Assembly (NCBI GenBank): GCA_965223325.1
Contig: CBDCWI010000001.1
Location: forward strand, 1,472,001-1,536,000
From: Candidatus Multivoradales bacterium
GTDB taxonomy: Bacteria > Acidobacteriota > Thermoanaerobaculia > Multivoradales > Multivoraceae
Reading direction: 5' to 3'
DNA: 64,000 bases
Shown: in pieces, positions 1 to 28,062 of the stretch
Layout of the letters: the number at the start of each line of letters is the position of its first letter
Position numbering within the stretch: position 1 is the first letter of the stretch
Position numbers and translations under genes: made by a program
Notes under the pieces: model-generated
What the model saw: the letters and a program-made list of their open reading frames with translations, nothing else
Database searches by the model: none
Told to the model about the DNA's origin: nothing

Positions 1-1
1 C

Positions 2-1516
2 CGGCGGCTCGAGAGCAGGCCGCGCTGGCGTTGGATGTTCCCAGCGACCTCCGTGGTGGTCACCCTCGCCTTCCTGCGCTACGTCGACGTGACCGCGCCC
101 GGGGTCATGGGGCGTTCCTTTGACCTGCAAGCTGATCTACCGCACATCAGGAACGTCGCCTCGATGTTTCGAACCGCCATGGACCCTGGGCAGGAAGCGT
201 TGATCACCGGTGGCATCGCGGCACTCTTCGTGCTCTTGTTTCTCCTGGTGCTTGCCGCTCTGCGGAGCATCCAGCGTGCCCTCGACATCCGCGGCTTCCG
301 CCGAACGCTCGTTCTTCTCGCGCTGGCCGCCGGCGTCGTCTTCCCGTGGACCGCGCGCAGTCAACCGGCCAACGAGGAACGCGTCGGATGGCGGGAGCGA
401 GACTTCGACCCCTGGCAAGGCAAGGTCGACGTTGGCATCGAGCACCGCGTTCACCACCGCGGCTTCGCCGAGCCGCTGACCACGATGCTGGCGCGCTGGA
501 TGATGACGCTCGAGAAGCCCGGCGCGCTCCGGTTGACGGCCAACACTGGTTCCTCCCTTACCGGGCTTGCCGGTGAGGCCGGTTGGCCGGACATTGTCGT
601 GATCTTTCTCGAGTCGTACGGCGCCACCTTGCTTGATGACCCACAGCACCGGCCCTACATCGAGGACCGTTTCGACGCCCTGGAGCGCAACCTGGCCGGC
701 GCCGGGTTCTCCTACCGCTCGATCCAGGCGCAATCCCCGACGTTCGCCGGCGGTTCGTGGCGCGCCCACGCCACGCTGCTCTCGGGGGTGCGCATCGAGA
801 ATCAGCGCCTCTACGAGGCACTCCTGGCGTCACGCTGGACAACCCTCCCGAGCCTCTTGGCGCAGAACGGCTACCGAACCGTCGCCGCCGAGCCCGGCAT
901 TCAAAAAGAGTGGCCAGAAGGTGAGTGGTGGAACTTCGACCAGATCTACGATGCGCCCAACCTCGCCTACCGCGGCGCCCCGATTGGCTGGTGGAAGATC
1001 CCCGACCAGTACACCGTCTGGAAGATCTGGAACGAAGAGCTGCGCCCCTCACGCAGCCAGCGCCGGCCGGTGTTCGCCAAGATCTCGCTCATCATGAGCC
1101 ACATACCGTACGTTCCCCTACCGCCCTACATCGACGACTGGCAAACCATTGACGGCGGTTCGGCGTGGAGCCAGATGATTCCCTCGGTGGGGGCAGACGA
1201 CTATCGCGACATGACCGAGCTCTCGATTCGCTATGTCGCAGCGTTTCGCCACGAGCTCGACGTCATCGAAGGGTTTCTGATTCAACTCGCCGACCCGAAC
1301 ACCCTGGTGATCGTCGCCGGCGATCACCAGCCACCGAAGCTGGCGACTCATGACAGCGACTCCTGGGCGGTGCCGCTGCACGTCATCAGCCGTCGCCACG
1401 ACCTGGTCGACGCCTTTGCGAGCCGCGGTCTCGCAGCGACGATGCTCCCCGCACCCGGTGACCGGTACGGCCTCGAGGACTTCTTTCCTGACTTCTGCGA
1501 GGTCTTCGATGGCTGA
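2..1516 (+). CDS. Membrane-anchored sulfatase/alkaline-phosphatase superfamily protein (5' end outside window)
   Basis: N-terminal TM segments; DIVVIFLESYG, SPTFAGGSWRAHATLLSG, SHIPY and GDHQP motifs; frame is open back to the window start. Confidence 0.8.
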   Translation, partial: RRLESRPRWRWMFPATSVVVTLAFLRYVDVTAPGVMGRSFDLQADLPHIRNVASMFRTAMDPGQEALITGGIAALFVLLFLLVLAALRSIQRALDIRGFRRTLVLLALAAGVVFPWTARSQPANEERVGWRERDFDPWQGKVDVGIEHRVHHRGFAEPLTTMLARWMMTLEKPGALRLTANTGSSLTGLAGEAGWPDIVVIFLESYGATLLDDPQHRPYIEDRFDALERNLAGAGFSYRSIQAQSPTFAGGSWRAHATLLSGVRIENQRLYEALLASRWTTLPSLLAQNGYRTVAAEPGIQKEWPEGEWWNFDQIYDAPNLAYRGAPIGWWKIPDQYTVWKIWNEELRPSRSQRRPVFAKISLIMSHIPYVPLPPYIDDWQTIDGGSAWSQMIPSVGADDYRDMTELSIRYVAAFRHELDVIEGFLIQLADPNTLVIVAGDHQPPKLATHDSDSWAVPLHVISRRHDLVDAFASRGLAATMLPAPGDRYGLEDFFPDFCEVFDG

Positions 1517-2720
1517 GCAGAGCGCCCTTCAAAAGGCGGCCACAAAGAGGGCGCTCGAACAGCGCTGGCTTCTCGTTGCCCTGGTGTTTGTCGTCGGGGT
1601 CGTGCTCTTCGGGCAGGCGCTCCCACAGGTGGGCCCGGCGTGGTACTTGACCGCTATCCTCTTCCTGGCCTGGGTGCTCACCGTCCTCTGGCGTCATCTC
1701 GACGAGAACGAGATCGACGCCTGGCAACCACTGACCGACGGGGCGCCCGAACGGGCCACTCGCACGAGTGCGAAGGAGCCCTCGGTTCTGGTGGCGCGCT
1801 TCGGCCCCGGCACGACGCTGACTCTTCTTCGGGCTCTCGGGCTTGGCATCTTTGCCGGGTATCTCGTGCTCCCGCGGCCAACCGGAGGAGGCGCCTGGAC
1901 TCCCGCGGCGCTCTTTGCCGCAATCGCCATTGCCGACGGCGCAGACGGCTGGCTGGCGCGGCGCACCGGCATGCCCACCCGTCTCGGCGCCCGCCTCGAC
2001 CTGATCCTCGACGGCTGGATGATCCTAATCGGAGTCCTCGTTTGTATCGCCTGGGGAATCTTGCCGTTGTGGTTTGTGCTGGTCGGCGCAGCTCGCTACG
2101 TCTACGTCGCCGTCGAACGCAACCGTCGACGCCGCGGACTGCCGCTTCACCCACTTGCCCCCAACGGAGAAAGGCGCATCGTCGCCGGTCTACAGATGGC
2201 GTTTCTCGCCGTCGTCTTGTGGCCGATCATCCCGTCGTCGATGGCGCACATCGCAGCCTGGCCGTTCGCCGTGGTTCTGCTCAGTGGTTTTCTGCGCGAC
2301 GGTCTGGTGATGGCGGGGCGGATCCCCGATGTGAAACAACCCCGGGAGAGGCGAGTCGCGAAGGGTGTGCGGTTCGTCTTCCGGCTCGCACGCCTCCTGG
2401 TCGCTCTTGGGCTCTTGTGGTGGCTTCTTCCCCTCTGGCCCGACGCACCCTCCGGCTGGAGCTCGGTACTCGAGACCTGGCCGGTAGCAGACCCTGAGAT
2501 CGCGGCACCGGCGATTGCAACGTTCACCATCGTCGCCGCGGTTGCCTTTGCTCTTGCGTGGACTGCACGCGCCGCCTCCGTCCTGCTCCTTCCGGCCCTG
2601 GTGCTCGCGGCAGGACCCGCGCCGCCCCATGCACCCACTGCAACGGTCGCGCTGGTGGTCGCGCTCCTGGTTCTCCTGCTCGACGTACGTCAGAGCCGCC
2701 GGGCGAGCACGTCGAGTTGA
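1509..2720 (+). CDS. CDP-alcohol phosphatidyltransferase family protein with a C-terminal membrane extension
   Basis: DGADGWLARRTG...GARLDLILD signature; ATG at 1509 overlaps the upstream gene end. Confidence 0.85.
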   Translation: MAEQSALQKAATKRALEQRWLLVALVFVVGVVLFGQALPQVGPAWYLTAILFLAWVLTVLWRHLDENEIDAWQPLTDGAPERATRTSAKEPSVLVARFGPGTTLTLLRALGLGIFAGYLVLPRPTGGGAWTPAALFAAIAIADGADGWLARRTGMPTRLGARLDLILDGWMILIGVLVCIAWGILPLWFVLVGAARYVYVAVERNRRRRGLPLHPLAPNGERRIVAGLQMAFLAVVLWPIIPSSMAHIAAWPFAVVLLSGFLRDGLVMAGRIPDVKQPRERRVAKGVRFVFRLARLLVALGLLWWLLPLWPDAPSGWSSVLETWPVADPEIAAPAIATFTIVAAVAFALAWTARAASVLLLPALVLAAGPAPPHAPTATVALVVALLVLLLDVRQSRRASTSS

Positions 2721-3544
2721 TGAACCACCGCCGCCAGGCGATCTTCGTCGATCCGCGCTTGGCGCTCCCGCTGCCAGTCGGTGACCTGCTGGTGATCGAG
2801 ACCAGCAGCCAGGCCTTCCCGCACCACCGCGGCGAGCAGTTGGCGAAGGAAGTTGTTGGTTGCTCGAGAGTCGCTCGCTCGCACGACCCAACTCGAGGCC
2901 GCCGCATCGACGAGCTCGAAGTGCGGGTGCTCGAGAACCGCCCCCAGCAATCTACGACCGCTCTGGGCACCGCCGCCAACCGCCCTCGCGTCCATCGAGG
3001 CGTGGTACACCGCTTCGAGCTCACCGTCGAGCGGCGAGCCGGTCGCCGGCACGAACGCGGTCGTGCCATCGAAGACGATCGGCATGTAGAGGAGTCCATC
3101 GCCAGCGAGTAGCTGTGCGAACTGCACAAGAGCTTCTTCGATGTCGAGCAGATCGAGGAGCGCACAGGCGACCAGGAGGTCAACCGGCGGGCGCCGATGG
3201 GCCGCAATTTCCGACAGCTCGGCCTGGACAGCGAGAACGTCGATGCCCGAAGCTGCCCAACTGGCGGTGCGACTCTCGAGTAGTGCGGCACAAGCCGGGT
3301 CAGGATCAAGAGCGGTCCACAACAGGCGCTTGCCGCGACCTCTGAGAGCTCCGGACTCGAGCAGCCGGTCGAGCATCGCACCCGTCCCCGCTCCGACGTC
3401 GAGCACCCGATGCGCGTGATCACTTGCCAGGTGATCGACGACCGTTTCGAACAACCGAGGATGCAAGGAGCGATCGTCAACCCGGCGCTTGGCCTCCAAC
3501 CAACTCACATTGATCAGCGGGTCTGTTGGGGTGTCATCGTTCAT
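2690..3544 (-). CDS. Class I SAM-dependent methyltransferase
   Basis: VLDVGAGTGA motif I and ALLDLL; AGGA SD before ATG 3544 (alternative starts 3559/3577). Confidence 0.85.
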   Translation of the reverse strand: MNDDTPTDPLINVSWLEAKRRVDDRSLHPRLFETVVDHLASDHAHRVLDVGAGTGAMLDRLLESGALRGRGKRLLWTALDPDPACAALLESRTASWAASGIDVLAVQAELSEIAAHRRPPVDLLVACALLDLLDIEEALVQFAQLLAGDGLLYMPIVFDGTTAFVPATGSPLDGELEAVYHASMDARAVGGGAQSGRRLLGAVLEHPHFELVDAAASSWVVRASDSRATNNFLRQLLAAVVREGLAAGLDHQQVTDWQRERQARIDEDRLAAVVHQLDVLARRL

Positions 3545-3555
3545 GCCAGTCCTCT

Positions 3556-4680
3556 TCACGTCGCCGCCGCTCGCCACTCCGCAAACTCAGTCTCCAGGAA
3601 GCGAACGATACGGGCCCCGGTCTCGTCCCAGGTGGGCATTGTCCTCCAGGCCGAAAGCGCCGCCAGCGCCATCTCCGCCAGACGCTCGCGATCGCTGGCC
3701 AGTGCATCGATTCGGGTGGCAAGAAGTGCCCGGTCGTCGCGCGGTACCAGGAAGCCGGTTACGCCGTCTTCGACGATTTCATGCGCAGCCCCGCTTCGTG
3801 ATGCAAGAACCGGCAGGCCAAAGCCCATCGCCTCCGCGTAGACCATGCCGAATCCCTCCCAGGTCGAAACCACAGCCAGCACGTGGCACGCCGCCAGCAA
3901 CTGGCAGAGGGCATCGTCTGGAAGGGGACCATGGAATCGAACCCGGTCCGTGAGCCCAAACTCCTCGACCAGCAGACGAGCACGTCGCGTTTCCCTTGGC
4001 TCGACTTCGAGATCGCCCACCACTTCGAGGGTGACCTCCGAGCGGCAGCCTGCGAGCGCGCGAATCAGAGACGCGAGACCTTTGCGGGCGATCACATTGC
4101 CGACAAAAACCAGGCGCAGCGCACCCTGATCCCCCGCGCGGTTCGCGACGTTCTCGGCCACAATCGACGCACCGGGAGAGAGCCGGTCTCGACCCGGCCG
4201 CGCGACGACGGCCGGCCGGCCACCAATCGCGCACAGTGCATCGACCGACGCACGGGTGGTCTCACTGTTGAAGATGAAACCGTCGACCCGCCGAAGGTAG
4301 GCACGTTCAACGGCGCGATGAAGTGGCTGTATAAGCGGCGTGTGAGGTTCGCTCGAGCGCAGGTGATGAACAACCGAGATGATCGGCAGGCGTCGCCCAT
4401 CGACCAAGGGTTTCGGCGAGCGAAAGAGCACTGGGTGGCAGAGCTCATCTTCGAGCAGGAGGTCGAGACCGGCGAGCTCGTGATCCAGGGAGGCTTCACC
4501 TTCGAAGCCGGTGCCCCGAAAGAGGGAGCGCGCGAACCCCACCGACCACGAGTCGAGTTTTGTCGGCAGTAGGCACACCCCATGGCCCGCGCGCTCCAAT
4601 GATGAGACCACTCGCAGGTCAAAGAGGTTCCCGCCAGTTCGATCATTGATCGAGGCAGGCACCAGCCAGCCCACCCTCAT
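3556..4680 (-). CDS. Glycosyltransferase family 4
   Basis: TGGNLFD N-terminus, FVGNVIARKG and EGFGMVYAEAM motifs. Confidence 0.92.
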   Translation of the reverse strand: MRVGWLVPASINDRTGGNLFDLRVVSSLERAGHGVCLLPTKLDSWSVGFARSLFRGTGFEGEASLDHELAGLDLLLEDELCHPVLFRSPKPLVDGRRLPIISVVHHLRSSEPHTPLIQPLHRAVERAYLRRVDGFIFNSETTRASVDALCAIGGRPAVVARPGRDRLSPGASIVAENVANRAGDQGALRLVFVGNVIARKGLASLIRALAGCRSEVTLEVVGDLEVEPRETRRARLLVEEFGLTDRVRFHGPLPDDALCQLLAACHVLAVVSTWEGFGMVYAEAMGFGLPVLASRSGAAHEIVEDGVTGFLVPRDDRALLATRIDALASDRERLAEMALAALSAWRTMPTWDETGARIVRFLETEFAEWRAAAT

Positions 4681-4765
4681 CCCGGGAAAGGAAGCGTTGC
4701 GTGGTTCTTGGGGGCAAGCATGAGATTGGTCCGGGTTGCCGAAGCGTTCGCCGTCTCGGGGCGCG

Positions 4766-5185
4766 TCAGGTCGTGCTCTTCTTCGGCCGGTCTCGATACG
4801 ATGCCCGGGCGATCTCGTTCTCCCACACCATCACCTCCAGCTCATCGAGGTGGCCAAGATCGAGACTGGCATTCAGGCGCTCCCACAGAACCCGCGCAAA
4901 GAGCTCGATGCTCGGATTGCGACCCTCAAACTCGGCGTGGTCGTTGAGGGTCGTGTCCTTCCAACGTGCGACCTCGGACTCGAGCGCCGCCTCGACATCG
5001 ACGATGTCGACCAGATAGTCGTGCTGATCGAGCGTCCGGCCTTCGAGCGTCAGCTCGACCCGGTAGTGATGGGAGTGCCAGCGATTCTCGTCGCCCCAAT
5101 CGCCGCCCACCAGAAAGTGCTGGGCGACGAAGTCGCGAGCGACGACCAGGCTATGGATGCCGGTACTCACAAGGCGATCACTCAC
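4766..5185 (-). CDS. 6-pyruvoyl-tetrahydropterin synthase (COG0720) family protein, Cys-less subtype
   Basis: AQHFL...HSHHY, LVDI, NPSIE and WENE motifs; no QueD-type CxxxHGH. Confidence 0.85.
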   Translation of the reverse strand: MSDRLVSTGIHSLVVARDFVAQHFLVGGDWGDENRWHSHHYRVELTLEGRTLDQHDYLVDIVDVEAALESEVARWKDTTLNDHAEFEGRNPSIELFARVLWERLNASLDLGHLDELEVMVWENEIARASYRDRPKKSTT

Positions 5186-5197
5186 CTAGAGGCGCAC

Positions 5198-6667
5198 TCA
5201 CAGCGCTCCACCAGCCCAATCGTCAGCTGGCTGTTGGTCGTCGCCTTCGCGTGCGATCTCACCAATCAGAACCAGGCTCTCCCCGACCCAGCGGTAGCGC
5301 GTTCGCACGAGTCGCGGCAACGCGGCCCGCTGGGAGATACCGAGATCGCCAATCGCCGAAAGGCCGCCAACCAATACAGGTGCCACCGTCACAACGAGAC
5401 GATCGACGGCGTCGGCGCGCAGAAACGAGGTAATGACCCGTCGACCGCCCTCGACCATCAAGCTCCGCAGCCCACGGTCGCCGAGGCAAACGAAAAGCGA
5501 CGGCAGGTCGACCCAACCGGTCTCGGCGTCGGCAGGAAACCGCTCGACCACCGCTCCGCGCGCCTCGAGTGCTAGCTGCCTGTCACGCGGGGCGCCTAGG
5601 GTTGTGGCAATGAGCGGCGCCACCGCACCCTCGAGAAGCTGCGACTCGAGCGGCAAACGAAGCTGGCTGTCGAGCACCACGGGCTGAGGATCGTCGCCTC
5701 GCACCAGGCGAACGGTCAACCGAGGGTCGTCGGCAATGACGGTCTCGACGCCGACCAGAATCGCATCGTGGCGGGCACGCATGCTGTGTGTGAGCTCGAG
5801 CGCCTGCGATGAGCTCAGGGTCATCGCACTCCCGCGCCGGTTGGTGATCGAACCGTCGAGACTCTGGGCGTAGGTCAGGGTGACGGTCGGTCGGCCGACT
5901 GCGGCACCGTCGATGCCCACCAGAGTCGAGCTCGGCCCTGTGCTCTCGGCCGCCGAGGCATCGGGCGCGGCGCCGGGGGTACTGGCCACTCGCGCCGCGT
6001 TCGGAACCAGGGCGTCGAGCTCGAGCAGGTGCCGCATACGCTTGACCTTGGTCTCGAGGTAACCGGCGTTCTCCGGCGTCGCCGGAACTTCGAGGGCCAC
6101 CCGCTCGACCTGCTCGAACCCCTCGGCAATCAGCCCTTCGACCTTGGTGGGGTTGTTCGTCATCAAGCGCACCGAGCCAACGCCGAGATCGAACAACATG
6201 TCGGCGGCCACCCCGTAGTGGCGCTCGTCGGCACGGTGGCCGAGCTCGAGGTTGGCCTCGACCGTGTCGTAGCCGGCATCCTGCAGGTTGTAGGCGCGCA
6301 GCTTCTCGAGCAGGCCAATGCCGCGACCTTCCTGGCGCAGGTAGAGGATGGCTCCGCGGCCCGCCTCGGCGACGCGCTTCATCGCCTGCTCGAGCTGCTT
6401 GCCGCAGTCGCAGCGCAGCGAACCCAGCACGTCGCCCGTGAAGCACTCCGAATGGATCCGCACCAGAACGTCCTGGCCAGCAATGTCGCCCATCACCAGC
6501 GCGAGGTGGTCTTTGTCGTCACCGGGTTGCCGGTAGAGGTGGAGCTCGAACTCCCCTTCCTCGGTTGGCAGGCGCGAGCTGGTCAAACGACGCGCAGCGG
6601 CACGCACGGCCTCAGCCTCGGTGATGGCGCTGGCGCTCGGACTCTTGGGTAGCTCGCGATCGGACAT
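5198..6667 (-). CDS. ribA: GTP cyclohydrolase II fused to a RibD C-terminal reductase domain
   Basis: VRIHSECFTGDVLGSLRCDCG, YLRQEGRGIGL and LMTNNPTK; then YAQSLDGSI, DDPRLTVR and LMVEGG. Confidence 0.92.
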   Translation of the reverse strand: MSDRELPKSPSASAITEAEAVRAAARRLTSSRLPTEEGEFELHLYRQPGDDKDHLALVMGDIAGQDVLVRIHSECFTGDVLGSLRCDCGKQLEQAMKRVAEAGRGAILYLRQEGRGIGLLEKLRAYNLQDAGYDTVEANLELGHRADERHYGVAADMLFDLGVGSVRLMTNNPTKVEGLIAEGFEQVERVALEVPATPENAGYLETKVKRMRHLLELDALVPNAARVASTPGAAPDASAAESTGPSSTLVGIDGAAVGRPTVTLTYAQSLDGSITNRRGSAMTLSSSQALELTHSMRARHDAILVGVETVIADDPRLTVRLVRGDDPQPVVLDSQLRLPLESQLLEGAVAPLIATTLGAPRDRQLALEARGAVVERFPADAETGWVDLPSLFVCLGDRGLRSLMVEGGRRVITSFLRADAVDRLVVTVAPVLVGGLSAIGDLGISQRAALPRLVRTRYRWVGESLVLIGEIAREGDDQQPADDWAGGAL

Positions 6668-6838
6668 GGCAGTGCACACCGTGCCCGTGAATCAGCCCGA
6701 GCATCCGCGGACACCTTGGAGGTTTGCGGCGCGACGGCCTGGCGGGATCGAGCGACGGCAAGCAGCCAGTATATCGCTCGCCCGGGTCCGGAACCCGCCC
6801 GCGGAACGCCAACGCAGAGCGGCTCTGGGAGACGGCTT

Positions 6839-6973
6839 CTAGTTCGCGGCGCAGCCCGCGAGGCTCAGTACGACGGGCAAAGTGACGAGAACGACGAAGT
6901 AGAACGCCACGACCAGCGCCCAATAGAGGCGACTGTGGTGAGGGCGGGTGGCGGTTGAATCTGTCGTCGTCAT
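6839..6973 (-). CDS. 44-aa single-TM peptide MTTTDSTATRPHHSRLYWALVVAFYFVVLVTLPVVLSLAGCAAN (below the ORF-track size cutoff)
   Basis: Translated by hand; GGGAGG SD upstream; long hydrophobic stretch; LAGC lipobox-like end; gap-free similarity to the A2M N-terminus. Confidence 0.7.
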   Translation of the reverse strand: MTTTDSTATRPHHSRLYWALVVAFYFVVLVTLPVVLSLAGCAAN

Positions 6974-7079
6974 GGTGGGGTCCCCTCCCAGCGGTGGAGC
7001 AACGGTCTCGATCAAAGAGACCTGAGGTCATCGGAGCGGCGGTCGGTGTCCGGGCCGCGGGAAGATTGTTTCGCCTGGA

Positions 7080-7098
7080 TGTGGCGACAATGTGACGA
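7080..7098. promoter_or_regulatory. Direct-repeat box TGTGGCGA-caat-GTGACGA (11-bp period) upstream of the small peptide gene
   Basis: 16/19 identical to the box at 18065-18083 upstream of the A2M gene, same orientation relative to the gene. Confidence 0.6.
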
Positions 7099-7368
7099 AG
7101 TAGGGAAGAGCAATTTCTCTTGATCTGGAACTGGCTAACAATACATGGGTGGTCGAGTTCCCCATTCCCAGGTGGCCAGGGCAAACCTCGAGCAGACTCT
7201 GAGCGCCGCTTTCGTCGCCGAGCTCTACGAGCGCTCGAGCGATCAACAAACGGGCGCGCATCGACTCCTAACGTCGGTCGCAGCTGACCGAGTTACCCCG
7301 TACACGTGATGAGTACACGGAGTTAGACAGGCTCCTCCAGAGCCCGAGAGACACGGTAGGATTCGCGC

Positions 7369-8133
7369 ATGGCATCAGACAGAAAAACCGTGGGAACTTC
7401 CCTCGGGTTCTTGGCGCTGCTTCTGGCCGTCGGCACCGTCGTGCTCTGGTTTCGACTGGCCCGGAACGTGGCGATCCCCGAGGACAGGACGGCCTTCGTC
7501 GCACTATGGGTGCTCGCCGCCGCCCTCGGCATCGCCGCCTTCATCAAGCGCACCCGCTGGTTCGGAGGGATCGCTGCGGTGCTCGGCATCGGGGTCGCTG
7601 CCTTCCTGGCGTTCACGGTGGCCATCAGCCGCCAGGATGTGGCGCCAAACGCCATCGAGGTCGGCGAGACGATCCCCCACTTCACCGCGCTGGACGATCG
7701 AGGCCAGCACTTCGACTCCGCAAGCCTCGACGGCAGGCGAGTCCTGCTCAAGTTCTTTCGCGCCCACTGGTGACCGTACTGTGTCGCCGAGTTACGGCGA
7801 TGGGAAGAGCTTCGATCCGAGTTCGATCGGCTCGACGTCCAGGTAGTCACCGTCAGCACGGATCTCCCTGAGGAGATTGCCGAAAAGCGCAAACACCACG
7901 GCCTGCAGGCCATCATGCTCTCGGATCGAGATCTCAAGGTCACCGACGGGTTCGGACTCCGCAACCTGGGCCCACATTCTGGACCGCCGTCGGGCGCCGA
8001 GGCGTTGCCGGTCCCTACCACGCTTCTGATCGACAGCGACGGCAAGGTGCTCTGGATCGAGCATTCAGAAAACTACCAGCGGCGTTCAGGACCGGAGTTC
8101 GTCCTCGCCGCACTCAAGACTCACCTCGACTGA
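7369..8133 (+). CDS. Membrane-anchored AhpC/TSA (peroxiredoxin-like, thioredoxin-fold) selenoprotein with a UxxC motif
   Basis: In-frame TGA at 7771-7773 gives FFRAHW-U-PYCVAEL, the position of canonical WCPxC; frame continues through SDRDL...PTTLLIDSDGKV to the stop at 8133; hairpin follows the TGA. Confidence 0.88.
7783..7801 (+). promoter_or_regulatory. Bacterial SECIS-like hairpin
   Basis: GUCGCCG-AGUUA-CGGCGAU; 16 nt lie between the UGA and the loop. Confidence 0.7.
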
Positions 8134-8139
8134 GCCTTT

Positions 8140-8400
8140 CTAGTGTCCTGGGTCACAAAACCACGACAAAGACCTCAGCCCCTTTCTAAAGCGAGTAGAC
8201 CCAGATCGCCGGACCGCCGCCACCTCGGCGCCTCCACACAGCGTTATCTCGGTTGAGCCGGACAGGGCAGCCCTCCAAGGCTGACATGTGAACGTTCGAG
8301 ATGCCGACAACAAAGGCACATCTGACAGTCTGCGACCTCCTCGAGTCGGGGCCTCTTCTGGTAGAGGTATTGTCAAATGTCGTTCTGAGTTGATCTAGGC
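8140..8400. mobile_element. Degenerate IS end(s), no intact transposase
   Basis: CTAGTGTCCTGGGTCACAAA end (minus-strand frame ending ...CDPGH*) and GAGGTATTGTCAAATG resemble IS termini; region lacks convincing genes and lies next to a TA module. Confidence 0.35.
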
Positions 8401-8874
8401 GGCGGGTGGATGCCGCGCACAGTCGGGGTGGGTTTTGAGTCGAAGTCGTGGCGCATGACTACGCCTCGCCACCGACCCAACGTGTAGCCCGATTCACAAA
8501 TGACCGTTGGTCAATGGCGAGGGTCATCCGCTGAGATTCGGCTCCCCTGCAGGAGGTCGGTGGTTCCGTGCGAAGGTCATGGCCCATCAACTGCGATATG
8601 TCCCCACCGACGCAAGCGGTTGGGGAGTCGTCGAAGGCGAATCGTCAACGGGTTCTTCCCGTTGGCGCCATCGTCACACCTACGCGAACTGCTCATCGGG
8701 ATCATCGGTCGCGCGCAGCGAAAAACCGGAAGCCGGATCCACTCCCATCGGGGCATGTAGAGGCGGATGGTAGGGCGCACAGAGGCTCGACGCTTCGTCT
8801 TGCCCGGCTTTGCCGCCCTAAGACTTACCTCTACCGAACGCCTGTCGCGGACAGACCACGAGGCAAGGGAGTGT

Positions 8875-9351
8875 CTACTTGGCTTGGAGGTTGTCCACCA
8901 TTTCAGCGCTGAGCAGCACCCGAACTCCGTAGCGTAAGAGTCCTGTGAAGTGCCGGCGGTTTTCGGTCACGACTGTGGTTGCGCCACTGAGCCTCGCGAT
9001 CTCGGCGATGTGGACGTCGTAGATCCTCCCGCCGGCGACACCATCGGCGGCCGCTGACGAGAGAAACGTCTGCCGGTGTTCTTCGGGAAGGGCGTCCACC
9101 TCGAAGAGCGTCAAGAGCTGCTCCTCTACAAATCGCACTGCAATCTCAGGAGCGAGCCGATACTCCTCGGGGAGTCGGGTTGTCACAGAGTAGAACTCGA
9201 GGCAGCAGTGCCAAGCAGTTCGCGGTGCAGGCAGGGTTCCGTCCGCCACGGCATCGAGAAGCACAAGGGGCGCTTCCGACTGGCTCCCCAGATCGATCAT
9301 TCCTGCGACAAGAACGCTGGTATCAAAAAAGACGCCAGTCAGTCGGGCCAA
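8875..9351 (-). CDS. vapC: PIN-domain toxin (VapC-like)
   Basis: FFDTSVLV, EFYSVTTR, IYDVHIAE and VTENRRHF PIN motifs; overlaps the antitoxin gene. Confidence 0.88.
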   Translation of the reverse strand: MARLTGVFFDTSVLVAGMIDLGSQSEAPLVLLDAVADGTLPAPRTAWHCCLEFYSVTTRLPEEYRLAPEIAVRFVEEQLLTLFEVDALPEEHRQTFLSSAAADGVAGGRIYDVHIAEIARLSGATTVVTENRRHFTGLLRYGVRVLLSAEMVDNLQAK

Positions 9352-9596
9352 CGGTCGCGCTCTTCCTCGATCAACTCGACGATGTCGACGGGCGGAAGCT
9401 CCTCGGAAGAACTTTGCGGCCTTGCAATGAGGCGTCCGTTCCGCTCGAAGAGCTCAGGTCCCGGAACCGCTCGTACCAGGCGCAGGCTGAAGCCCTCGAG
9501 ACGGAACTCGATCTCGGTACCAGGACCGAAGCCTAGACGCTTCCTGAGTGGGGCAGGAATGACCAAGCGGCCTGCCTTGTCAATGGTAGCAGTCAT
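9339..9596 (-). CDS. vapB: AbrB/MazE/SpoVT-family antitoxin (VapB-like)
   Basis: TIDKAGRLVIPAPLRKRLGFGPG swapped-hairpin motif. Confidence 0.9.
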   Translation of the reverse strand: MTATIDKAGRLVIPAPLRKRLGFGPGTEIEFRLEGFSLRLVRAVPGPELFERNGRLIARPQSSSEELPPVDIVELIEEERDRWPD

Positions 9597-9622
9597 GCCA
9601 TGATAATACCATATAAAATGGA
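9597..9622 (-). promoter_or_regulatory. Extended -10 (TGGTATTAT) 6 nt before the antitoxin ATG; probable leaderless promoter with CCAT/ATGG inverted half-sites
   Basis: Minus strand reads ccattttatatggtattatcatggcATG. Confidence 0.55.
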
Positions 9623-9772
9623 GGAGAGGCTTCCCGACCGGCCAGACCTCATCGCGCAGAGCCTTCTTTCCTGCTTAGAACCCAACGTTTGGAAGGCCGG
9701 AGCCTCCGAGAAGAGCGAGCAACGAGCGCCCGCGTGATCGGTGCCAGGCGAGAACGAATCGCCCACTCCTTC

Positions 9773-12046
9773 CTAACGAACCGCGAAGGCGACGACCGGT
9801 GTTTCCCTGGTCTGGCCGTCGGTCAGCAGAACACGAGCGTAGGTGTTGTGTTCGCCGCGGGTGGGTTGCCAGATGAAGTGGCGTTCACCGGGGCCTGTCT
9901 TACCTACGAGGTGATTGTCCACGTACCACTGGGTCAACGCGACGCCCTTGGCACTCGCAAGGCGCAGCGCGAAGGCTTCCAGTTCGTCGGGGATGCGGGG
10001 ATCGAGCGCCAGGTGGAGGCCGGGGGTGGGGCTCTCCAGGCGAACGGCAGGGCGTTGGCGAGCGCTGGGGTGGGCGGCCCGTTGTGTCGTCGGCAGGGTG
10101 TCGGAGGCCGAACCGTGTACGGGGCAGGTGGCCTGTGGCTCGTGCCCGCGGCGGAACCACTCGTCGTGTCGCGGGCAGGTGAGAGCGGCGCGGGCGCCGG
10201 TGACTGAGCAGACAGCGTGTTGGACCAGCTGGGGGTCGAGGTTCAGCCGTTCGGGTTGCAAAGAGGCGCCGGCGCGCCGGGTCAGGGCGTCGAAGACTGA
10301 GCGCAGGGCGAGGGCCGGGCCGAAAGATCCTGAGACGTCAACGGTGGGACTGCGGTCGGCATTGCCCATCCAGACGCCAACGACATAGCGCGAATCAAAG
10401 CCCACTGCCCACGCGTCGCGATGATCGTTGGAAGTGCCGGTCTTGATGGCGGTCTGGCGACCGCGGTCGAGTACCGAGCCGCCGCCAAACTCGAGTTGGC
10501 GGGCCTTGGGGTCTGAGAGCATGTCACCAAGGAGGGTGGCGACCGCATACGGCATGACCCGCCGGGACTTCGCCTGGGCCGCTCTCTGTTCGTCTAGCGT
10601 TCGGATGAGCGGGCGCCACTCTCCACCGCGCGCGATGGCGGCGTAGGCGGTGACCAACTCTTCGAGGGTCACTTCGCCGTTCCCCAAAGCGAGACCTTCG
10701 CCGTAGTGCGAGGGGTCGCGATCGAGACTGGCGAAACCGAGGTGATGGAGGCGCTCGAGGAAAGCGTCGGTGCCAATGTGCTGGACGGCGCGCACAGCGG
10801 GTGTGTTGAGCGAGTTGGCGAGCGCTACTCTGAGGCGCACCGGGCCGTAGAAGGTGCGGCTGTAGTTTCTGAAACTGTGTTGCCCGTTTCCAACCGCTTC
10901 GACCAGGGGTGCGTCGTCGATGATGGTGGCCGCCGTCCACCCACGCTCCATGGCCATGCCGTAGACGAACGGTTTCAAGGTCGAGCCCGGCTGGCGCGGC
11001 ACGGTCACTTTGTCGATGTGGCCCGCGTCGCGGTCACTTTGAAACCCGAATCCGTTGACCCAGGCCAGGACTTCGCCGCTCTGGTGATCGGCGACCAGCA
11101 CTGCACCATCGCCAACCCGGCGTTCGGCGAGACGCTCGAGGTTGCGATCGAGAATCTCCCGCGCTTCGTGCTGCAGGTTTGCATCGAGGGTCGTACGAAT
11201 GGTTCGCCCCGGCGCCGGGCCGGCCTGCTCGGGCAGTGCAGCGAGGAAGTGGCGCGCGTCGACGGGCGGTCGCGGCGCACGAACGCGCAGCGGGCGCTTC
11301 ACAATCGCTTCTCTTTCTTCTGTGCTCAAGAGACCACGGCGCACCAGCTCGTCGGCGAGCCGCAGCACGGCGGGGCGTGCCGCCTTTGGATCGCGGTGGG
11401 GATCGAGGCGACTCGGCGAACGCACCAGGACTGCCAGGGTGAGGATCTCGCTCGGGCCGAGCGTTCCAAGCTCGCGGTCGAAGGTCTCGCGTGCCGCCTG
11501 CACCACCCCGCGGCGCCTACGCCCATAGGGAACCTGGTTGAGGTAGAAGGTCAGGATCTCCTCTTTCGTGAACCGTGCTTCGAGCGCTTGTGACTCGAAG
11601 CCTTCGACCCAGCGCGACCAGGGCGTGCGGGGCCGGGGCCGGTTGATTCGAATGACCTGTTCCGAGATCGTGCTGGCTCCACGCACTGCCCGAAGCGAGC
11701 GCGCGTTCAAAACGGCGGCATGCATGCGCGCCAGCCAGTCGACTCCTCCGTGGTTCCAGAAGCGCTTGTCCTCCGCCACAACAAAGGCGTCGCGCAACAG
11801 CGGCGGGACCTCTTCCCAGCTCAGTTGATTGTTCAGGTTGGGCCCGTCGCCGCGCTCCTCGGCGAGCACCACGCCGTTGCGATCGAGGTAGGTATCGGTC
11901 GCACCAACGGTCCACGGCGGCAAGCTATCGGGAATCGGCTGGAGGGCCTGCCTGGTCTTGATGATCAGACCAGTAGCGGCAAGGAGCGAGACGACGGCCG
12001 CCACGAACATCCAACGAAGCCAGGGTGCTGAAGGTAAAGAGCGCAT
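9773..12046 (-). CDS. pbpC: Penicillin-binding protein 1C
   Basis: EDKRFWNHGGVD and GASTISEQ (transglycosylase); STLK, SLN and KTG (transpeptidase); directly follows the A2M gene. Confidence 0.92.
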   Translation of the reverse strand: MRSLPSAPWLRWMFVAAVVSLLAATGLIIKTRQALQPIPDSLPPWTVGATDTYLDRNGVVLAEERGDGPNLNNQLSWEEVPPLLRDAFVVAEDKRFWNHGGVDWLARMHAAVLNARSLRAVRGASTISEQVIRINRPRPRTPWSRWVEGFESQALEARFTKEEILTFYLNQVPYGRRRRGVVQAARETFDRELGTLGPSEILTLAVLVRSPSRLDPHRDPKAARPAVLRLADELVRRGLLSTEEREAIVKRPLRVRAPRPPVDARHFLAALPEQAGPAPGRTIRTTLDANLQHEAREILDRNLERLAERRVGDGAVLVADHQSGEVLAWVNGFGFQSDRDAGHIDKVTVPRQPGSTLKPFVYGMAMERGWTAATIIDDAPLVEAVGNGQHSFRNYSRTFYGPVRLRVALANSLNTPAVRAVQHIGTDAFLERLHHLGFASLDRDPSHYGEGLALGNGEVTLEELVTAYAAIARGGEWRPLIRTLDEQRAAQAKSRRVMPYAVATLLGDMLSDPKARQLEFGGGSVLDRGRQTAIKTGTSNDHRDAWAVGFDSRYVVGVWMGNADRSPTVDVSGSFGPALALRSVFDALTRRAGASLQPERLNLDPQLVQHAVCSVTGARAALTCPRHDEWFRRGHEPQATCPVHGSASDTLPTTQRAAHPSARQRPAVRLESPTPGLHLALDPRIPDELEAFALRLASAKGVALTQWYVDNHLVGKTGPGERHFIWQPTRGEHNTYARVLLTDGQTRETPVVAFAVR

Positions 12047-15000
12047 TTAGGGCACCACCTCGTCAGCCGCGTCTTCCAGGTGCATGGGCACCACGAGACG
12101 GCCTGAACCGCTACGACCGAACACGTCCGGGTCGTACATCTCTTCGGCCTCGGCTGACAGCCACTGGAACTCGCCGCCGCTGATGACCTGCCCGACCCAG
12201 GCAAGGTGGTAGCGCCCCGGGCCGAGAAAGTCGGAGTAGAAATTGACCGCGTCGTGACCGAGCTCTCGATGGTAGAAGCCGGAATCGCTCGAACCGAACT
12301 CGCGCCAATCGCGATGGGCCCACCAGTGCGAACGCACTCCGAAGCCATCGCGCGCTTTGTCAGCGTCGACCTGCGAGGCGGTTTCCAGGTCGCGATTCAC
12401 CGGCTCTATTCCACCGGGCACCGGGTCAGAGACAGCAACGAAGTTACGGGCCGTCGGCGCATCGATGAACAGGTCGACGCGCACCAACTCGCCCGCTCCT
12501 AGCTCCACCTTGCCGGCCAGCTGCTGCCATCGACCGTCACGCTGGACGTGAATCTCCCGCACCACCTCAATGCCGGCGTTGGCCGCGGTGTCGGCTGAGA
12601 GCTCCTTCGGAGCCCAGGTCAGGCGGGTGGCCAGGTAGCTCCGCCCGCTGCCTCGACGTTGTGCCTGGAGCTCGAATTCACGCCCGGGCAGGTCGGCATG
12701 CGCACCGAGATCGGAGGCGCCAACCACAAGCGATCGTGGTGTCGCCCGTTTGTCATGCAGCTCCAGCTTTCCCACCCGTCGCCCGTCGAGGCGCGTGGTC
12801 CACACGACGTCTGTGTCCGCGCTCTCGTAGACCGTGGCGAAGTCGCGCATGCCAGCGATACAGAAGACGTTCTCCTGGGTGTTCTGCCAGTGAAAGCGAT
12901 CGTCGCGCGCCGCGGTGATCGAGCGCATCAGGCGGAAGCTGTCGTCGGCCGCATCGATCCCGGTCGGTGAACCGTCGCGTGAACGCACGAGAGCGCTCAG
13001 AATCGAGCATGACGTACGGGTCGAGGAGTAGTGCATGCGAGCCCAGGAACCTCCCAGGGCTTCGTCGAATTGCAGCTTGCCCGCGGTTCGATCAGACGAT
13101 GCAAAGATCGAGTCGCGCAGCACCGTCACCAGGTCGTCGTGGCCCATCACGTCGGCTGCGATCAGGTAGTGCGCGCGACCGAAGAGGCTCATCTCATCGG
13201 CGCGCCGTTGCCAGCGTTCCAACTCGTCGGCGTCGAGGCGACCGCGCAGAGCCAGACCCGCCATCGCCACCGCCCGCGTCGAGAGTTGCATCCGCGGAAC
13301 CCAGGAGTCGCCGAACGCTCGGTCGTTGCGCAGCAACCGATCGAGGTAGCTGTGCAGGCGCTTCTCGGCAGCCTGCGGAATCACGTAGCCGGCCTCTGCC
13401 AGCCACGCCAGCCCGAGCGCCGTGTAGGCACTGAGGTACGGTGAGACGTAGCGGTCTTCGGGCCGCCAGTAGGCCATGCCCCCGTTGGGCGCCTGGAAAC
13501 TCGTCATGTCTGCGAGCACACGCTCGGCCAACTGCTCTGCCCCGTCCCACGCAAAGTCGGCGGGTAGGTAGTCCGCGAGCTCGATCGAGCGCGCCGCGCC
13601 GAGGGCGCGCGAAAGACGTTGCTCCCAGCAGTCGTGCGGATAGTCACGCAGGTAAGCGAGTGCACCGTCAACGGAACCCACCACCGAGGCCAGGGCTCTC
13701 ACTTCGAGCTCGACGGTTTCGGGACGCAGGTTCAGAGGTAACCGCAGGTTCAGGGCGATGTCGTCTTCGGCACTCGTCTGCCAGCTGGCGGCGGTCTCGA
13801 AGAACTGAGCCGGCAGGACGTCGAGGGGAACCCGCAGGAGGTCGCGGTTCTCCTCGTTCGAGCGGTCGTGGGCGCGCACCGTCAGGTTCAGGGTGCCAGG
13901 CCTGTGAACACGCACCGGGAAGACGAGCGGAACCCGCTGGTAGGGCTCGGCCCGAACCGTTCGGCTCAGGGCTCCGGCACTCTCGCCGGGGCCTTCGACA
14001 CTCGCACTCAGTACGAGCTCCCGCGTCTCGTCGGTGCGATTCATGACTGTGAACCGTGCTTCGAACAGGTCGCCTTCGCGCACCTGGTTGGGCAGCGCCG
14101 GTCGCAGCTCGATGGGCTGGTTGACCTTCAGGTTGCCTTCGCCGAGCCCGAAGCGATCGCTCGGCGTCGCCGCCATCGCAACGATGCGCCAACCGGTGAG
14201 GTTGTCGGGCAGCTCGAACTCGATGCGCGCTCGGCCATCGGCGTCGGTTTCGAGCGCCGGGTTCCAATAGATCATCGAGCGGAAGTCGGAACGGAGGGCG
14301 TCGGGGCCAAGCCCATCGCCGCCGGCGTTGGCACCCTTTTTCTCGAACTTCTGCATTCCGATCAGGCGTTTGATGAGGTTGTAGTTCTCGACGTCCAGGG
14401 GCGGCAACTCATAGAAGCCTCGATAGGGATCGAACGCACGGCGCCCACCCTGGATCAAGTCGAAGACCGCCTCGTCGAGCACCGCGACCGCCAGCTGGAT
14501 CGGTTCGGAAACGACGCCTTCGTGCCGAGGCTTGGCGACGATGTTGGCAACCGCCATCTCCCGTGGACGCCAGGTCTCCTTCTCGGGCGTCACCTCGATT
14601 TCGATCTGCTTGTACGGATCGACGACTTCCATGCGCACATAGCCCATCCGGAACGCCGGCTTGCCGAGGTCAACCGTCGCGAAAGACTCGCCACGTTCGG
14701 CCGGCGGAACGTCGACCCTCGGCGAAGTGACCACTGCCGAAAAGTAGAAGCCCGGGCTCTGGTCCGGACCAACCTCGACTTCGACGACCTCGGTCGGGCC
14801 TGCCAGGACCTTCGTCCAGCTCCTCTGGACTCCGAGGCGCTCGACGGTGAAGAGAGCGCGCGCACCGGGGAAGGGATTGCGAATCAGAAAGCGTGCGGTC
14901 TCGCCTACCTCGATCGACGTCGATTCCACTTCGATCGGCAGCTCGTGACCAGGCGGCGAGCGCCAGAGAGCCGCGCCGGCGCCAATGCCCCACCGGCGCG

Positions 15001-17914: not shown

Positions 17915-18064
17915 GACGGAATCCTGAAGTGGGCAGGGGCGCCTCGAGCTTCGCCCGCGAGAATGTCCGCCGACCGTGAGGTTGCAGGTACGGCGGGTAC
18001 CTGACGATGAGATCGCACGGCAATCGCAACGAAGTGACCGAGGCCGGGCAATTGGGAGGCAGAT

Positions 18065-18083
18065 TGTGGCGAGAGGGTGACGA
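18065..18083. promoter_or_regulatory. Direct-repeat box TGTGGCGA-gagg-GTGACGA upstream of A2M-pbpC
   Basis: Near copy of 7080-7098. Confidence 0.6.
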
Positions 18084-18254
18084 GCGAGGAGAGAGGCGAG
18101 GTGGCCGCGTCGAACGAATCGGCCGAACGTCCCGATTCTTTCGCCTCGAAGCTGGTCAAACAACTCGCGGAGGTGGGCGCAGATAGCGTCGAGCCCGGAT
18201 CTCGCACCGTTGCTATGCTGCGGCCATCATTTGATCCTGCGGAGTTCGAGCACC

Positions 18255-19817
18255 ATGCGCACCCCGGCAAGTCGGTCTGATCTCGGTAAGTCCCTGACCG
18301 CAAAGAATTTCCTTGTTTGCTTCGCAGTTGGCCTGGCTGCGTTCTCCGGCGTTTCGCTGCCCACTGATGCGATGCAACCAGGCGAGCCGACGGTGATCGA
18401 CACGATGGACTTCACCACCATCGACGACGAAGCTGTCCTCGAAATCCGTGCCGGCGGCCCGCTGCTCTACAGCCACTACCGCAACCCGTCCAACGACTGG
18501 GTAGTCGAGCTGGCCAACTGTGTACCCGGTGAAGAGCTCAGCGATGTGGACGTCCAGTCCGGCCTGATCGAGTCGGTCAAGATCTCGAGCGAACGCCTCG
18601 GCCGGGGACGACCCTTGACCACGCTCACCGTCGCGACCCGCACCGCGAGCGTCGCCAGCCTGGTCAATCAAGACGACACCCTGACTGTGACGTTCCGCCC
18701 CAGCGATCGTGGTTCGGTCTACGCCAGCGAGCCCGCGGAACTCGCCTCGGCATCTGCACCCGACCAACCGGCCCTTACCGAGCCCGGAACCCAGCCGGTT
18801 GCCGAAGTGGCAACGCCAGCTGTGGTGGGTGGCGAAGAGACCGAACCACGTGCCCTCGAGACCGGTACCGTCGAACTGGTGCCCGTTGACTCGACGCGCT
18901 CGGAGCCGGGACCGGCGCTCGAGAACCCTGGTCCGCTCGACAGCACCGCCCCCGGAGAACCAGCTGGGACGACAACAACACGCATCCCGCAGCAAACCGC
19001 CCCGCGCCAGGCGCGCGTCGCGCTCACTGGCGCCAGCAGCCCCGTAGCCGGGCCACCAGCAGACGGCGCGGCCGCCAGAAGCCTCAGGGACGTCGAGATC
19101 GAGGGCACCGGGGCCTCGGCGAGTTTTCACCTCGAGGCCGACGGTGAACCCGAATGGAAGAGCTTCTTTCTAGCCGACCCGCCCCGCTTCGTGCTCGACA
19201 TCGATGGCGCCAGCAATGACGTGCGCCGCGGCACGGTCGACGCCCGCACTCCCTGGGTCGAGCGCGTGCGAATCGGCCAGTTCCAGACCAGTCCGTTCCC
19301 GATCACCCGGGTGGTTTTCGACCTGCGCGAGAAGCGCGCACCGTACCTCACTCGCCGCGGAAACGTGTTGGTTGTCTCCTTCGGCGAACCGTTCACCAGC
19401 GACGTCACCGCGACCCCCGACATCACGACAACCACCACGACGACGGTTCCCCGAGGCCCTACCGATCCCGCCAGCGTGGTGCGCGCCTACATCGACGCCT
19501 TCAATCGCGCCAGCGTCGACGACATCTTGTTGACCGTGACCCAGGACATTCAGTGGTTCTCGGTCATCGAGAACCGCCTGCTACTCGAAGCGGAAGGCAC
19601 CGAAGACCTGTCGCGCTCGCTGCGAGCCTACTTCGCGAGCTTTACTGCCCGGTCCGAGATCGAAGACCTGATCGTCAACGGACGCTACGTCTCGATGCGT
19701 GAGCGGGTGCGCTGGAACGCGACAGATGGCACGCCACATACACAGGCTTCCCTGGTGGTTTTCGAGATCGAGGGCGATCGCATCTCGCGAACCTGGTACT
19801 ACCCTTCGCAACCCTGA
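18255..19817 (+). CDS. Secreted AMIN-domain protein with a C-terminal SnoaL/NTF2-like domain
   Basis: Signal peptide; FFLADPPRFVLDIDG...VRIGQFQ...TRVVFDL AMIN motif; Pro/Thr-rich linkers; VVRAYIDAFN...VFEIEGDRISRTWYY. Confidence 0.72.
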   Translation: MRTPASRSDLGKSLTAKNFLVCFAVGLAAFSGVSLPTDAMQPGEPTVIDTMDFTTIDDEAVLEIRAGGPLLYSHYRNPSNDWVVELANCVPGEELSDVDVQSGLIESVKISSERLGRGRPLTTLTVATRTASVASLVNQDDTLTVTFRPSDRGSVYASEPAELASASAPDQPALTEPGTQPVAEVATPAVVGGEETEPRALETGTVELVPVDSTRSEPGPALENPGPLDSTAPGEPAGTTTTRIPQQTAPRQARVALTGASSPVAGPPADGAAARSLRDVEIEGTGASASFHLEADGEPEWKSFFLADPPRFVLDIDGASNDVRRGTVDARTPWVERVRIGQFQTSPFPITRVVFDLREKRAPYLTRRGNVLVVSFGEPFTSDVTATPDITTTTTTTVPRGPTDPASVVRAYIDAFNRASVDDILLTVTQDIQWFSVIENRLLLEAEGTEDLSRSLRAYFASFTARSEIEDLIVNGRYVSMRERVRWNATDGTPHTQASLVVFEIEGDRISRTWYYPSQP

Positions 19818-19857
19818 GCCTTCGCGTAGCCCTTCGCCCCCGCCGGGGTGCACGCTC

Positions 19858-19890
19858 TTGACAAGGCGAACCCATCGGGTGTATATACAC
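19858..19890 (+). promoter_or_regulatory. marR promoter: TTGACA -35 plus palindromic operator GTGTATATACAC
   Basis: Perfect 12-bp palindrome at 19879-19890, 4 nt before the ATG. Confidence 0.75.
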
Positions 19891-19894
19891 GCAC

Positions 19895-28022: not shown

Positions 28023-28062
28023 TTGGTGTTCGAAGAACCTGGGAGCAAGACTGGAACAAGCA

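Follow-up and report, generated by a model that had tools for sequence, protein, structure and literature searches.

The commonest selenoproteins of marine bacteria are those with a thioredoxin fold and a UxxC motif, in which U stands for selenocysteine (Sec) (PMC2398784, Table 2). Passages of the Sargasso Sea survey list 22 sequences of a UxxC 'Prx-like protein' (PMC1088965), the Global Ocean Sampling (GOS) set of Zhang & Gladyshev 2008 holds 225 sequences of 'Prx-like 1', a UxxC family assigned to pfam00578 (PMC2398784, Table 2), and a section of a 2026 review names a 'Prx-like thiol:disulfide oxidoreductase' as 'predicted with high confidence' (PMC13188914). In this work, a stretch of 64,000 nucleotides from contig CBDCWI010000001.1 of a Candidatus Multivoradales bacterium (hereafter, the window) was analyzed around one gene at positions 7369-8133, whose reading frame contains an internal TGA codon within a redox motif. 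Judging from comparison with homologous sequences, this is very probably one intact selenoprotein gene that is decoded with Sec. The best explanation overall, to which we assign a probability of roughly 80%, is that its product would be a 'Prx-like 1' selenoprotein acting as a periplasm-facing selenol/thiol reductase fed by DsbD/CcdA.

The window gene resembles the GOS 'Prx-like 1' sequences in its Pfam family, in the UxxC motif, and in the position of Sec, which comes first in the motif. Passages of supplementary file 3 of PMC2398784 contain full-length reads with the same N-terminal membrane module and with the motifs ...KFFRAHW-U-PYCV[AG]ELRR... and ...ALPVP[AT]TLLID...NYQRRS.P..., as well as fragments with ...KFFRGHWUPYCVAELRRWEELR...; this likeness was judged by eye on those passages, without a computed alignment. 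The bin is a broad one: other members in the same passages are soluble and short, and share only ...YRGHWUPYC... with the window protein. The family was thus predicted as a selenoprotein family by 2008, and the window gene adds one member to a computationally predicted family. The original prediction had described the selenoprotein as hidden, which does not apply to the family, since its full-length members are present in the 2008 'Prx-like 1' set.

The gene begins with ATG at 7369 and meets an in-frame TGA at codon 135, where the sequence reads cac tgg TGA ccg tac tgt (H-W-U-P-Y-C); 119 further open codons follow, giving a product of 254 residues. Its only two Cys-type redox residues are those of the motif, the protein having no Cys beyond U-P-Y-C. 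Under translation table 11, the frame is split into a 134-aa open reading frame (ORF; 7369-7773) and a 72-aa ORF (7915-8133). The frame, the TGA and the motif were checked, and the coordinates given for them in the original prediction proved accurate throughout, as did its warning that gene callers would cut such genes. The sequence breaks off exactly at ...FFRxHW in six of the 120 listed homologues (see below) and in 38 of 89 new representatives of the N-terminal module, and the window gene and many relatives stand in public databases as 'hypothetical proteins' of 126-134 residues that end at the Sec codon.

Two samples of relatives were used for comparison. A word-index protein search gave 149 homologues, of which 120 were listed, mostly of 250-290 residues and with H-W-C-P-Y-C; six of 140-154 residues, which are the nearest to the query (56-67% identity), all end right after ...FFR[AG]HW. 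A genome scan (one genome per species) with the peptide pattern [IML]KFFR[AG]HW gave 301 relatives, of which the best 80 loci were kept; the pattern ends just 5' of the Sec column, and hence the scan is blind to the choice between TGA and TGY. These 80 loci contain 81 gene copies, as the Myxococcota-labelled locus L007 has two, and together with the window they make 82 sequences. Their labels include Acidobacteriota/Thermoanaerobaculia, Myxococcota and 'Deltaproteobacteria', Gammaproteobacteria (Halieaceae, Porticoccaceae, HTCC2080), Spirochaet*-labelled metagenome-assembled genomes, and Binatia; the closest relatives among the best 80 carry Acidobacteriota/Thermoanaerobaculia labels (71-78% identity). 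The two copies of L007 are tandem paralogues (L007:657-2567), each with TGA at the Sec column and with the hairpin described below.

In all 81 copies, a TGA stands at the column and is followed by P-Y-C and by approximately 119 more open codons (82 of 82 with the window). Among the more distant full-length homologues, Cys occupies the same column in 109 of 112. The pairing of Cys with TGA in aligned homologues, which had been proposed as a check on the prediction, is therefore clear, and both the placement of the TGA at the first Cys position of a W-C-P-Y-C motif and the open frame behind it were borne out. The mean entropies at codon positions 1, 2 and 3 over the 82 sequences are 0.65, 0.57 and 1.49 for codons 95-134, and 0.71, 0.47 and 1.49 for codons 145-254. 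Coding constraint is thus equal on either side of the TGA, which argues that the downstream part is translated in the same frame; together with the occurrence of TGA in one column of all 81 copies, it cannot be put down to chance.

These results bear on the possibility that the TGA is a real stop, i.e., that the locus is a pseudogene, a sequencing error, or a source of two products, one of them a 134-aa membrane protein and the other a fragment from further downstream. Such a reading would fit the 134-aa ORF of table 11 and the many public 'proteins' of 126-134 residues like it, but we consider it highly improbable: the same TGA recurs in 81 of 81 copies from independent assemblies over several phyla, purifying selection is identical past it, the next ORF starting with ATG (7915) would be without the redox motif and half of the fold, synonymous sites are conserved in the hairpin, and sel genes lie beside the gene in relatives (see below).

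A genome-wide reassignment of TGA to Trp or Gly (NCBI tables 4 and 25), with a residue other than Sec at codon 135, has a negligible probability. The window gene itself ends with TGA, as do 46 of the 81 copies in relatives (the others end with TAG or TAA), the aligned residue in homologues is Cys, and the genomes, at approximately 64% G+C, belong by label to ordinary table-11 phyla. What speaks for it is one homologue, P0010 (255 aa, 48% identity, from a short metagenome contig), with Trp at the Sec/Cys column (H-W-W-P-Y-C); this Trp codon, one base away from TGA, could reflect a sequencing error, an inactivated copy, or a change from TGA to TGG.

For a view of how Sec and Cys forms are related, a FastTree tree was built from the 82 Sec forms and the 112 full-length homologues (at least 220 aa), with 8 shorter ones excluded. 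The smallest clade with all Sec forms has 84 tips and thus takes in two Cys forms, P0002 and P0003. The sister of P0002 is the L068 Sec form (support 1.0); the Sec-form clade itself has a support of only 0.65, under midpoint rooting. As far as the tree goes, the nesting of Cys forms is the usual Sec/Cys interchange inside one family.

A hairpin of the selenocysteine insertion sequence (SECIS) type follows the TGA within the coding sequence (Table 1). Its sequence, GUCGCCG-AGUUA-CGGCGAU, begins after 9 nt from the UGA, and its loop begins 16 nt after it. The bacterial SECIS (bSECIS) model in the legend of Fig. 2 of PMC13188914 requires a loop of 3-9 nt, a stem of 4-16 bp, a spacing of 16-37 nt, and a minimum free energy (MFE) of -7.5 kcal/mol or lower, with a G within the first two nucleotides of the loop and, as a rule, G or U after it. 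The hairpin fits these constraints, with a 5-nt loop starting A-G-U, a 7-bp stem, a spacing of 16 nt, and an MFE of -11 to -11.6 kcal/mol. Over the 82-sequence alignment (71 distinct rows), pairing is possible in 99.2% of 497 cells; when the 3' arm was slid by 1-3 columns as a control, the value was only 19.5-73.6%. The pair of columns 17 and 27 occurs as C-G (60), G-C (5) and G-U (6), giving 11 compensatory cells, and none of 500 shuffles reached the observed covariation score. In the G-C and G-U variants, a change of Ala to Gly (GCC to GGC) is matched by a synonymous change of an Arg codon (CGG to CGC or CGU).

Synonymous sites within the hairpin vary little. The third positions of V139 and A140 are invariant, those of E141, R143 and R144 have entropies of 0.17, 0.70 (all of it compensatory) and 0.47 bit, respectively, and Leu142 is encoded by UUR in every sequence; conserved four-fold sites elsewhere in the gene give 1.4-1.9 bits. 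On average, third-codon-position entropy is 0.39 in the hairpin vs 1.49 in its flanks, and the stem sequence is nearly constant across phyla. The hairpin that had been predicted behind the TGA is thus supported by the published constraints, by the compensatory pair, and by the low synonymous variation. A scan of the whole window with Rfam at gathering thresholds gave no match; since only curated families can match, this carries no information.

Genes for Sec decoding lie close to the selenoprotein gene in several relatives. In the flanks of the 80 loci, ARAGORN found 9 tRNA genes, 4 of which are tRNA-SeC (L043, L068, L070 and L072). In L068, L072 (the marine gammaproteobacterium HTCC2080) and L043, the tRNA gene is followed by selB (361-413 bits, cut-off 242) and selA (567-591 bits, cut-off 268), and in L068 the tRNA-Sec gene begins 68 nt past the stop of the selenoprotein gene. 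The tRNA-Sec gene of L070 lies at the end of the flank. We also screened the window for a second selenoprotein (in-frame TGA, flanked on either side by at least 30 open codons, with a Cys, Ser or Thr close by); the 161 candidates were nearly all in non-coding frames, and none was upheld. One UxxC-like candidate at 28017-28019 on the minus strand was rejected as an out-of-frame artefact overlapping other ORFs. Near it lie a gene of the AhpD-like (carboxymuconolactone decarboxylase) family at 27374-27937 on the minus strand, whose C-E-Y-C motif makes it a Cys form, and, beside this gene, a TetR-like ORF (27967-28722, plus strand). Sec forms of the same AhpD-like family occur in marine metagenomes (PMC2398784).

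The redox domain, which spans the TGA, matches Pfam AhpC-TSA (PF00578) over residues 98-229 with 83.8 bits (cut-off 26, E 1.2e-23) and Redoxin (PF08534) with 71.4 bits (cut-off 26.6, E 9.3e-20). The AlphaFold2 model, based on an alignment of 73 sequences, has a mean predicted local distance difference test (pLDDT) score of 93.0 and a predicted template modeling (pTM) score of 0.88. Foldseek aligns it best with chains of BCP, ResA and Tpx (target TM-score 0.82-0.87, E approximately 1e-10), the top three being the BCP-type proteins Bcp4, Bcp1 and BcpB; these alignments have at most 178 columns, and the match therefore covers the domain only. By Pfam, AlphaFold2 and Foldseek alike, the thioredoxin fold is completed 3' of the TGA, as had been anticipated.

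The closest characterized proteins by sequence point to thiol:disulfide reductases of the ResA/TlpA/CcmG (DsbE) group. In PDB, ResA is among the best matches by fold (TM 0.82-0.85) and by sequence, with E 6.6e-8; a Prx-like protein from Sulfolobus has an E-value of 5.1e-7. U135 aligns with the first Cys of W-C-K-P-C in ResA, and the segment P-V-P-T-T-L-L-I-D-S-D-G-K-V with P-L-P-T-S-F-L-I-D-K-D-G-K-V; P214, P216 and T217 of this segment are nearly invariant in the family and T218 is invariant. We take the proline of the P-V-P-T-T loop to be cis, as in the thioredoxin-like oxidoreductase family. With these reductases, the window protein shares the thioredoxin fold, the W-C-x-x-C motif, the P-T-x-x-x-I-D-x-x-G signature after the probable cis-Pro, and a membrane tether before the domain; it may also depend on DsbD/CcdA as they do, as gene order in 17 loci suggests (see below). 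It differs from them in having Sec for the attacking Cys, three conserved helices rather than one anchor, an identity of only approximately 20-22%, and no visible link to cytochrome c maturation genes.

All 16 NCBIfam matches fall short of their cut-offs, and NCBI's naming models thus do not cover the family. This applies to the reductase equivalogs (ResA, 48.2 vs 170; TlpA, 30 vs 230; another, 22.3 vs 359; DsbE, 15.9 vs 123), which the window protein would resemble in its action without being a member, and also to two families of thioredoxin-fold proteins with Sec in a CxxC-like motif, SelL_rel_redox (NF040769; 30.6 vs 120) and WAxxUGC_long (NF041054; 33.1 vs 300), whose weak matches show that the window protein is not a member.

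The same selenoprotein might instead be a peroxidase, with the selenol or C138 as the group that would reduce H2O2 or lipid hydroperoxides on the surface of the membrane, followed by recycling of the Se-S bond. The Pfam family is that of AhpC/TSA, the best NCBIfam match is the BCP thiol peroxidase model (49.5 bits), the top three Foldseek hits are BCP-type peroxiredoxins, and a membrane tether would suit lipid hydroperoxides. However, this best peroxidase score lies far under its cut-off (49.5 vs 140), as do the others (32.8 vs 123, and 23 vs 270 for PrxU). Compared with the BCP/PrxQ and Tpx peroxiredoxins and the Sec peroxiredoxins (TxxU; PrxU), the window protein has the same Pfam family and fold, but its Sec precedes the peroxidatic position by three residues and occupies the site of their Thr. 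In the alignment with peroxiredoxin 2ywn, U135 takes the Thr column of T-x-x-C, R131 the Pro column, and C138 that of the peroxidatic Cys; the P-x-x-x-T-x-x-C pattern of peroxiredoxins proper is thus absent, with C138 alone fitting as peroxidatic Cys, and the W-C-x-x-C and P-T-x-x-x-I-D signature is that of ResA. From these alignments we somewhat favor a reductase over a peroxidase, and regard the peroxidase as rather unlikely.

The N-terminal part of the protein is a membrane module with three predicted transmembrane helices. Hydrophobic stretches cover approximately residues 7-32, 40-62 and 63-89, AlphaFold2 places helices at 2-32, 41-59 and 64-85 with a block pLDDT of 89-98 over residues 1-90, and the loop motif V-x-I/L-P-x-D/N-R-T (residues 34-41) and the I-S-x-Q that closes helix 3 are conserved. 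Residues 1-90 have no Pfam match, and an ESM Atlas search with residues 1-94 of the N-terminal ORF gave scores of only 0.75-0.78, below noise level. W27, V34, P37, G54, A57, S87 and Q89 are conserved in Sec and Cys forms alike. A HMMER search with residues 1-96 over 1.84 billion representatives found 91 proteins, none longer than 252 residues and none with another architecture; the 89 new representatives among which 38 end at ...FFRxHW are mostly 125-134 residues long. As far as these searches show, the three-helix module is a hallmark of this family, mostly stored as a truncated orphan in public protein sets. It had been thought unusual for the family; on the contrary, it is kept in Sec and Cys forms and is found on no other architecture.

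Mean charges over the 82 sequences suggest an orientation. The N-terminus has 2.43 K+R, the 5-residue loop 2 has 1.32 K+R and 0.06 acidic residues, and loop 1 has 2.15 K+R and 1.65 D+E. The N-terminus and the K/R-rich loop 2 are therefore probably cytoplasmic, with the redox domain facing the periplasm. Support for a periplasm-facing domain that is independent of these charges comes from dsbD. In 17 of 81 loci (the 80 loci and the window), it is the gene immediately 5' of the selenoprotein gene and has the same orientation, its end falling between 136 nt before and 7 nt inside the start of the selenoprotein gene; the pair is found in Myxococcota-type genomes. A second apparent gene cluster directly upstream was discarded as a shadow frame of dsbD. 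Proteins of the DsbD family hand on electrons of cytoplasmic thioredoxin to oxidoreductases in the periplasm, among them a peroxiredoxin of the cell envelope (PMC3322552), a precedent that would also suit the peroxidase discussed above.

The opposite orientation, with the N-terminus outside and a cytoplasmic redox domain reduced directly by thioredoxin or glutathione, appears quite unlikely. Loop 1 also carries approximately two K+R per sequence, 64 of the 81 loci are without a dsbD neighbour, and GST-like neighbours occur in 12 loci. Against this stand the higher K+R content on the side of the N-terminus and loop 2, the acidic residues of loop 1, the 17 loci with dsbD, and the fact that the nearest characterized relatives by sequence are ResA and CcmG, which are extracytoplasmic proteins.

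The periplasm-facing reductase might then work as follows. SelB carrying Sec-tRNA(Sec) would bind the hairpin, so that the UGA is decoded as selenocysteine, as comparison with relatives suggests. Three transmembrane helices would hold the thioredoxin-fold domain with its W-U-P-Y-C centre in the periplasm, where Sec135 would attack a substrate disulfide or sulfenic acid and Cys138 would resolve the mixed selenylsulfide. The resulting Se-S bond would be re-reduced from cytoplasmic thioredoxin through a DsbD/CcdA conduit. The protein would thus act like a reductase of the ResA/TlpA/CcmG type, with Sec making the attacking residue more reactive. A bolder version, in which the three-helix module is more than an anchor and forms with the Sec domain a self-contained, DsbD-fed membrane redox enzyme, is improbable; its substrate would be membrane-embedded or membrane-proximal, such as lipid hydroperoxides, quinone, or a lipoprotein thiol. 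The invariant W27, P37, D/N-R-T loop, S87 and Q89, the packing in the model with pTM 0.88, and the restriction of the module to one family point in this direction.

Several observations weigh against the interpretation as a Sec-decoded, periplasm-facing reductase. The 64-kb window has no tRNA gene, and no selA, selB or selD was found among the 48 scanned of its 125 ORFs of at least 150 aa. Since the query was a Sec form and the best 80 of its 301 relatives were kept, the count of 81 of 81 holds for the near clade rather than for the family as a whole. Given the high G+C content of the sequence, the folding energy of the hairpin is unexceptional (z -0.16 over 80 nt; z -1.16 over 40 nt, 26 of 200 shuffles being as good), and the support for the hairpin is comparative. 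The peptide V-A-E-L-R-R is kept in Cys forms too, so part of the nucleotide conservation is protein constraint, and the evidence specific to RNA consists of the synonymous-site signal and the compensatory pair only. The charge bias behind the topology is modest. No dsbD lies next to the window gene itself or at most other loci, and the Pfam scan that gave the domains DsbD_N, DsbD_TM and Thioredoxin_7 covered the cluster representative, the other 16 genes being assigned to dsbD by blastp clustering. Finally, the best Foldseek and NCBIfam matches include the peroxidases BCP and Tpx beside ResA.

Table 1. Features of the selenoprotein gene in the window and of associated loci in relatives.
Feature	Position	Strand	Description and basis
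Whole selenoprotein gene	7369..8133	+	254 codons and stop, with one internal UGA predicted to be read as selenocysteine; Pfam match spans the TGA; layout common to 81/81 relatives
N-terminal membrane module	7372..7623	+	Three predicted transmembrane helices; hydropathy and charge over 82 sequences, AlphaFold2; probable topology
Thioredoxin-fold (AhpC/TSA, Redoxin) domain	7660..8055	+	Residues 98-229; Pfam, Foldseek and PDB sequence matches
UGA codon 135, predicted selenocysteine	7771..7773	+	N-terminal (attacking) position of the U-P-Y-C redox motif (7771-7782); TGA/Cys column comparison
Bacterial SECIS hairpin within the coding sequence	7783..7801	+	Codons V139-R144 and first base of W145; 7-bp stem, 5-nt loop AGUUA; comparative support
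P-V-P-T-T, probable cis-proline loop	8008..8022	+	Residues 214-218; aligns with P-L-P-T-S of ResA 4nmu
True stop	8131..8133	+	Also TGA, with no hairpin 3' of it; relatives stop at the same place with TGA, TAG or TAA
selC (tRNA-Sec)-selB-selA clusters	L068:10821-14291; L072:14002-17454; L043:16241-19664		In three Halieaceae-type gammaproteobacterial loci, 68 nt to 5.5 kb past the selenoprotein gene

In the window, the solitary selenoprotein gene has two neighbours, both on the minus strand: a ribA/ribD fusion (5198-6679) and a VapBC pair (8875-9596). In the former, one ORF joins GTP cyclohydrolase II (RibA) to the C-terminal reductase domain of RibD, in an order that is uncommon for such fusions; the latter, directly downstream of the selenoprotein gene, encodes a PIN-domain (VapC-like) protein and an AbrB/MazE-type antitoxin. 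The regions flanking the gene (6680-7368 and 8134-8874, approximately 690 and 740 nt) are without a convincing ORF, and G+C content falls to 0.607 in 8001-10000; no Rfam match was found in these flanks, nor an FMN riboswitch in front of the divergently oriented ribA/ribD gene. When positions 1-20000 of the window were compared with the 80 loci, no blastn match was obtained outside the gene and no tblastn match for 9 neighbouring proteins. Given this lack of synteny, the source genome is not a close relative of any of the 80 loci. Among the other frequent neighbours of the selenoprotein gene, each in 12-14 of the 81 loci on mixed strands or at varying distance, are genes for a short-chain dehydrogenase/reductase, a sulfatase, a glutathione S-transferase (GST) and an enoyl-CoA hydratase, from which we read no function. 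Elsewhere in the window, the minus strand at 9773-18163 carries a known gene pair, namely a bacterial alpha-2-macroglobulin (2038 aa) and, after it, a penicillin-binding protein of the PBP1C type (757 aa), and an AbiEii-type nucleotidyltransferase toxin is encoded at 22650-23780 on the plus strand.

With respect to the published descriptions, the word 'transmembrane' occurs in the main text of neither PMC2398784 nor PMC13188914, and DsbD is mentioned once in PMC13188914, for another family (PMC2398784 was not searched for it). A full-text literature search on selenoproteins with a transmembrane module or a DsbD link gave nothing on this family, from which we make no claim that such a description is unpublished. 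The family-wide membrane module, the pairing with dsbD, the selC-selB-selA linkage and the near-constant SECIS stem are details that were not found in the searched texts of these two papers. The general picture of Sec use is left unchanged, since UxxC thioredoxin-fold selenoproteins were already the commonest marine kind. For the organism from which the window comes, the gene marks a probable selenium user. If the self-contained membrane enzyme were true, the protein would be a bacterial, periplasm-facing functional counterpart of the membrane-acting selenoperoxidases. A dedicated family model would mend a widespread annotation error in Acidobacteriota, Myxococcota, and marine Gammaproteobacteria.

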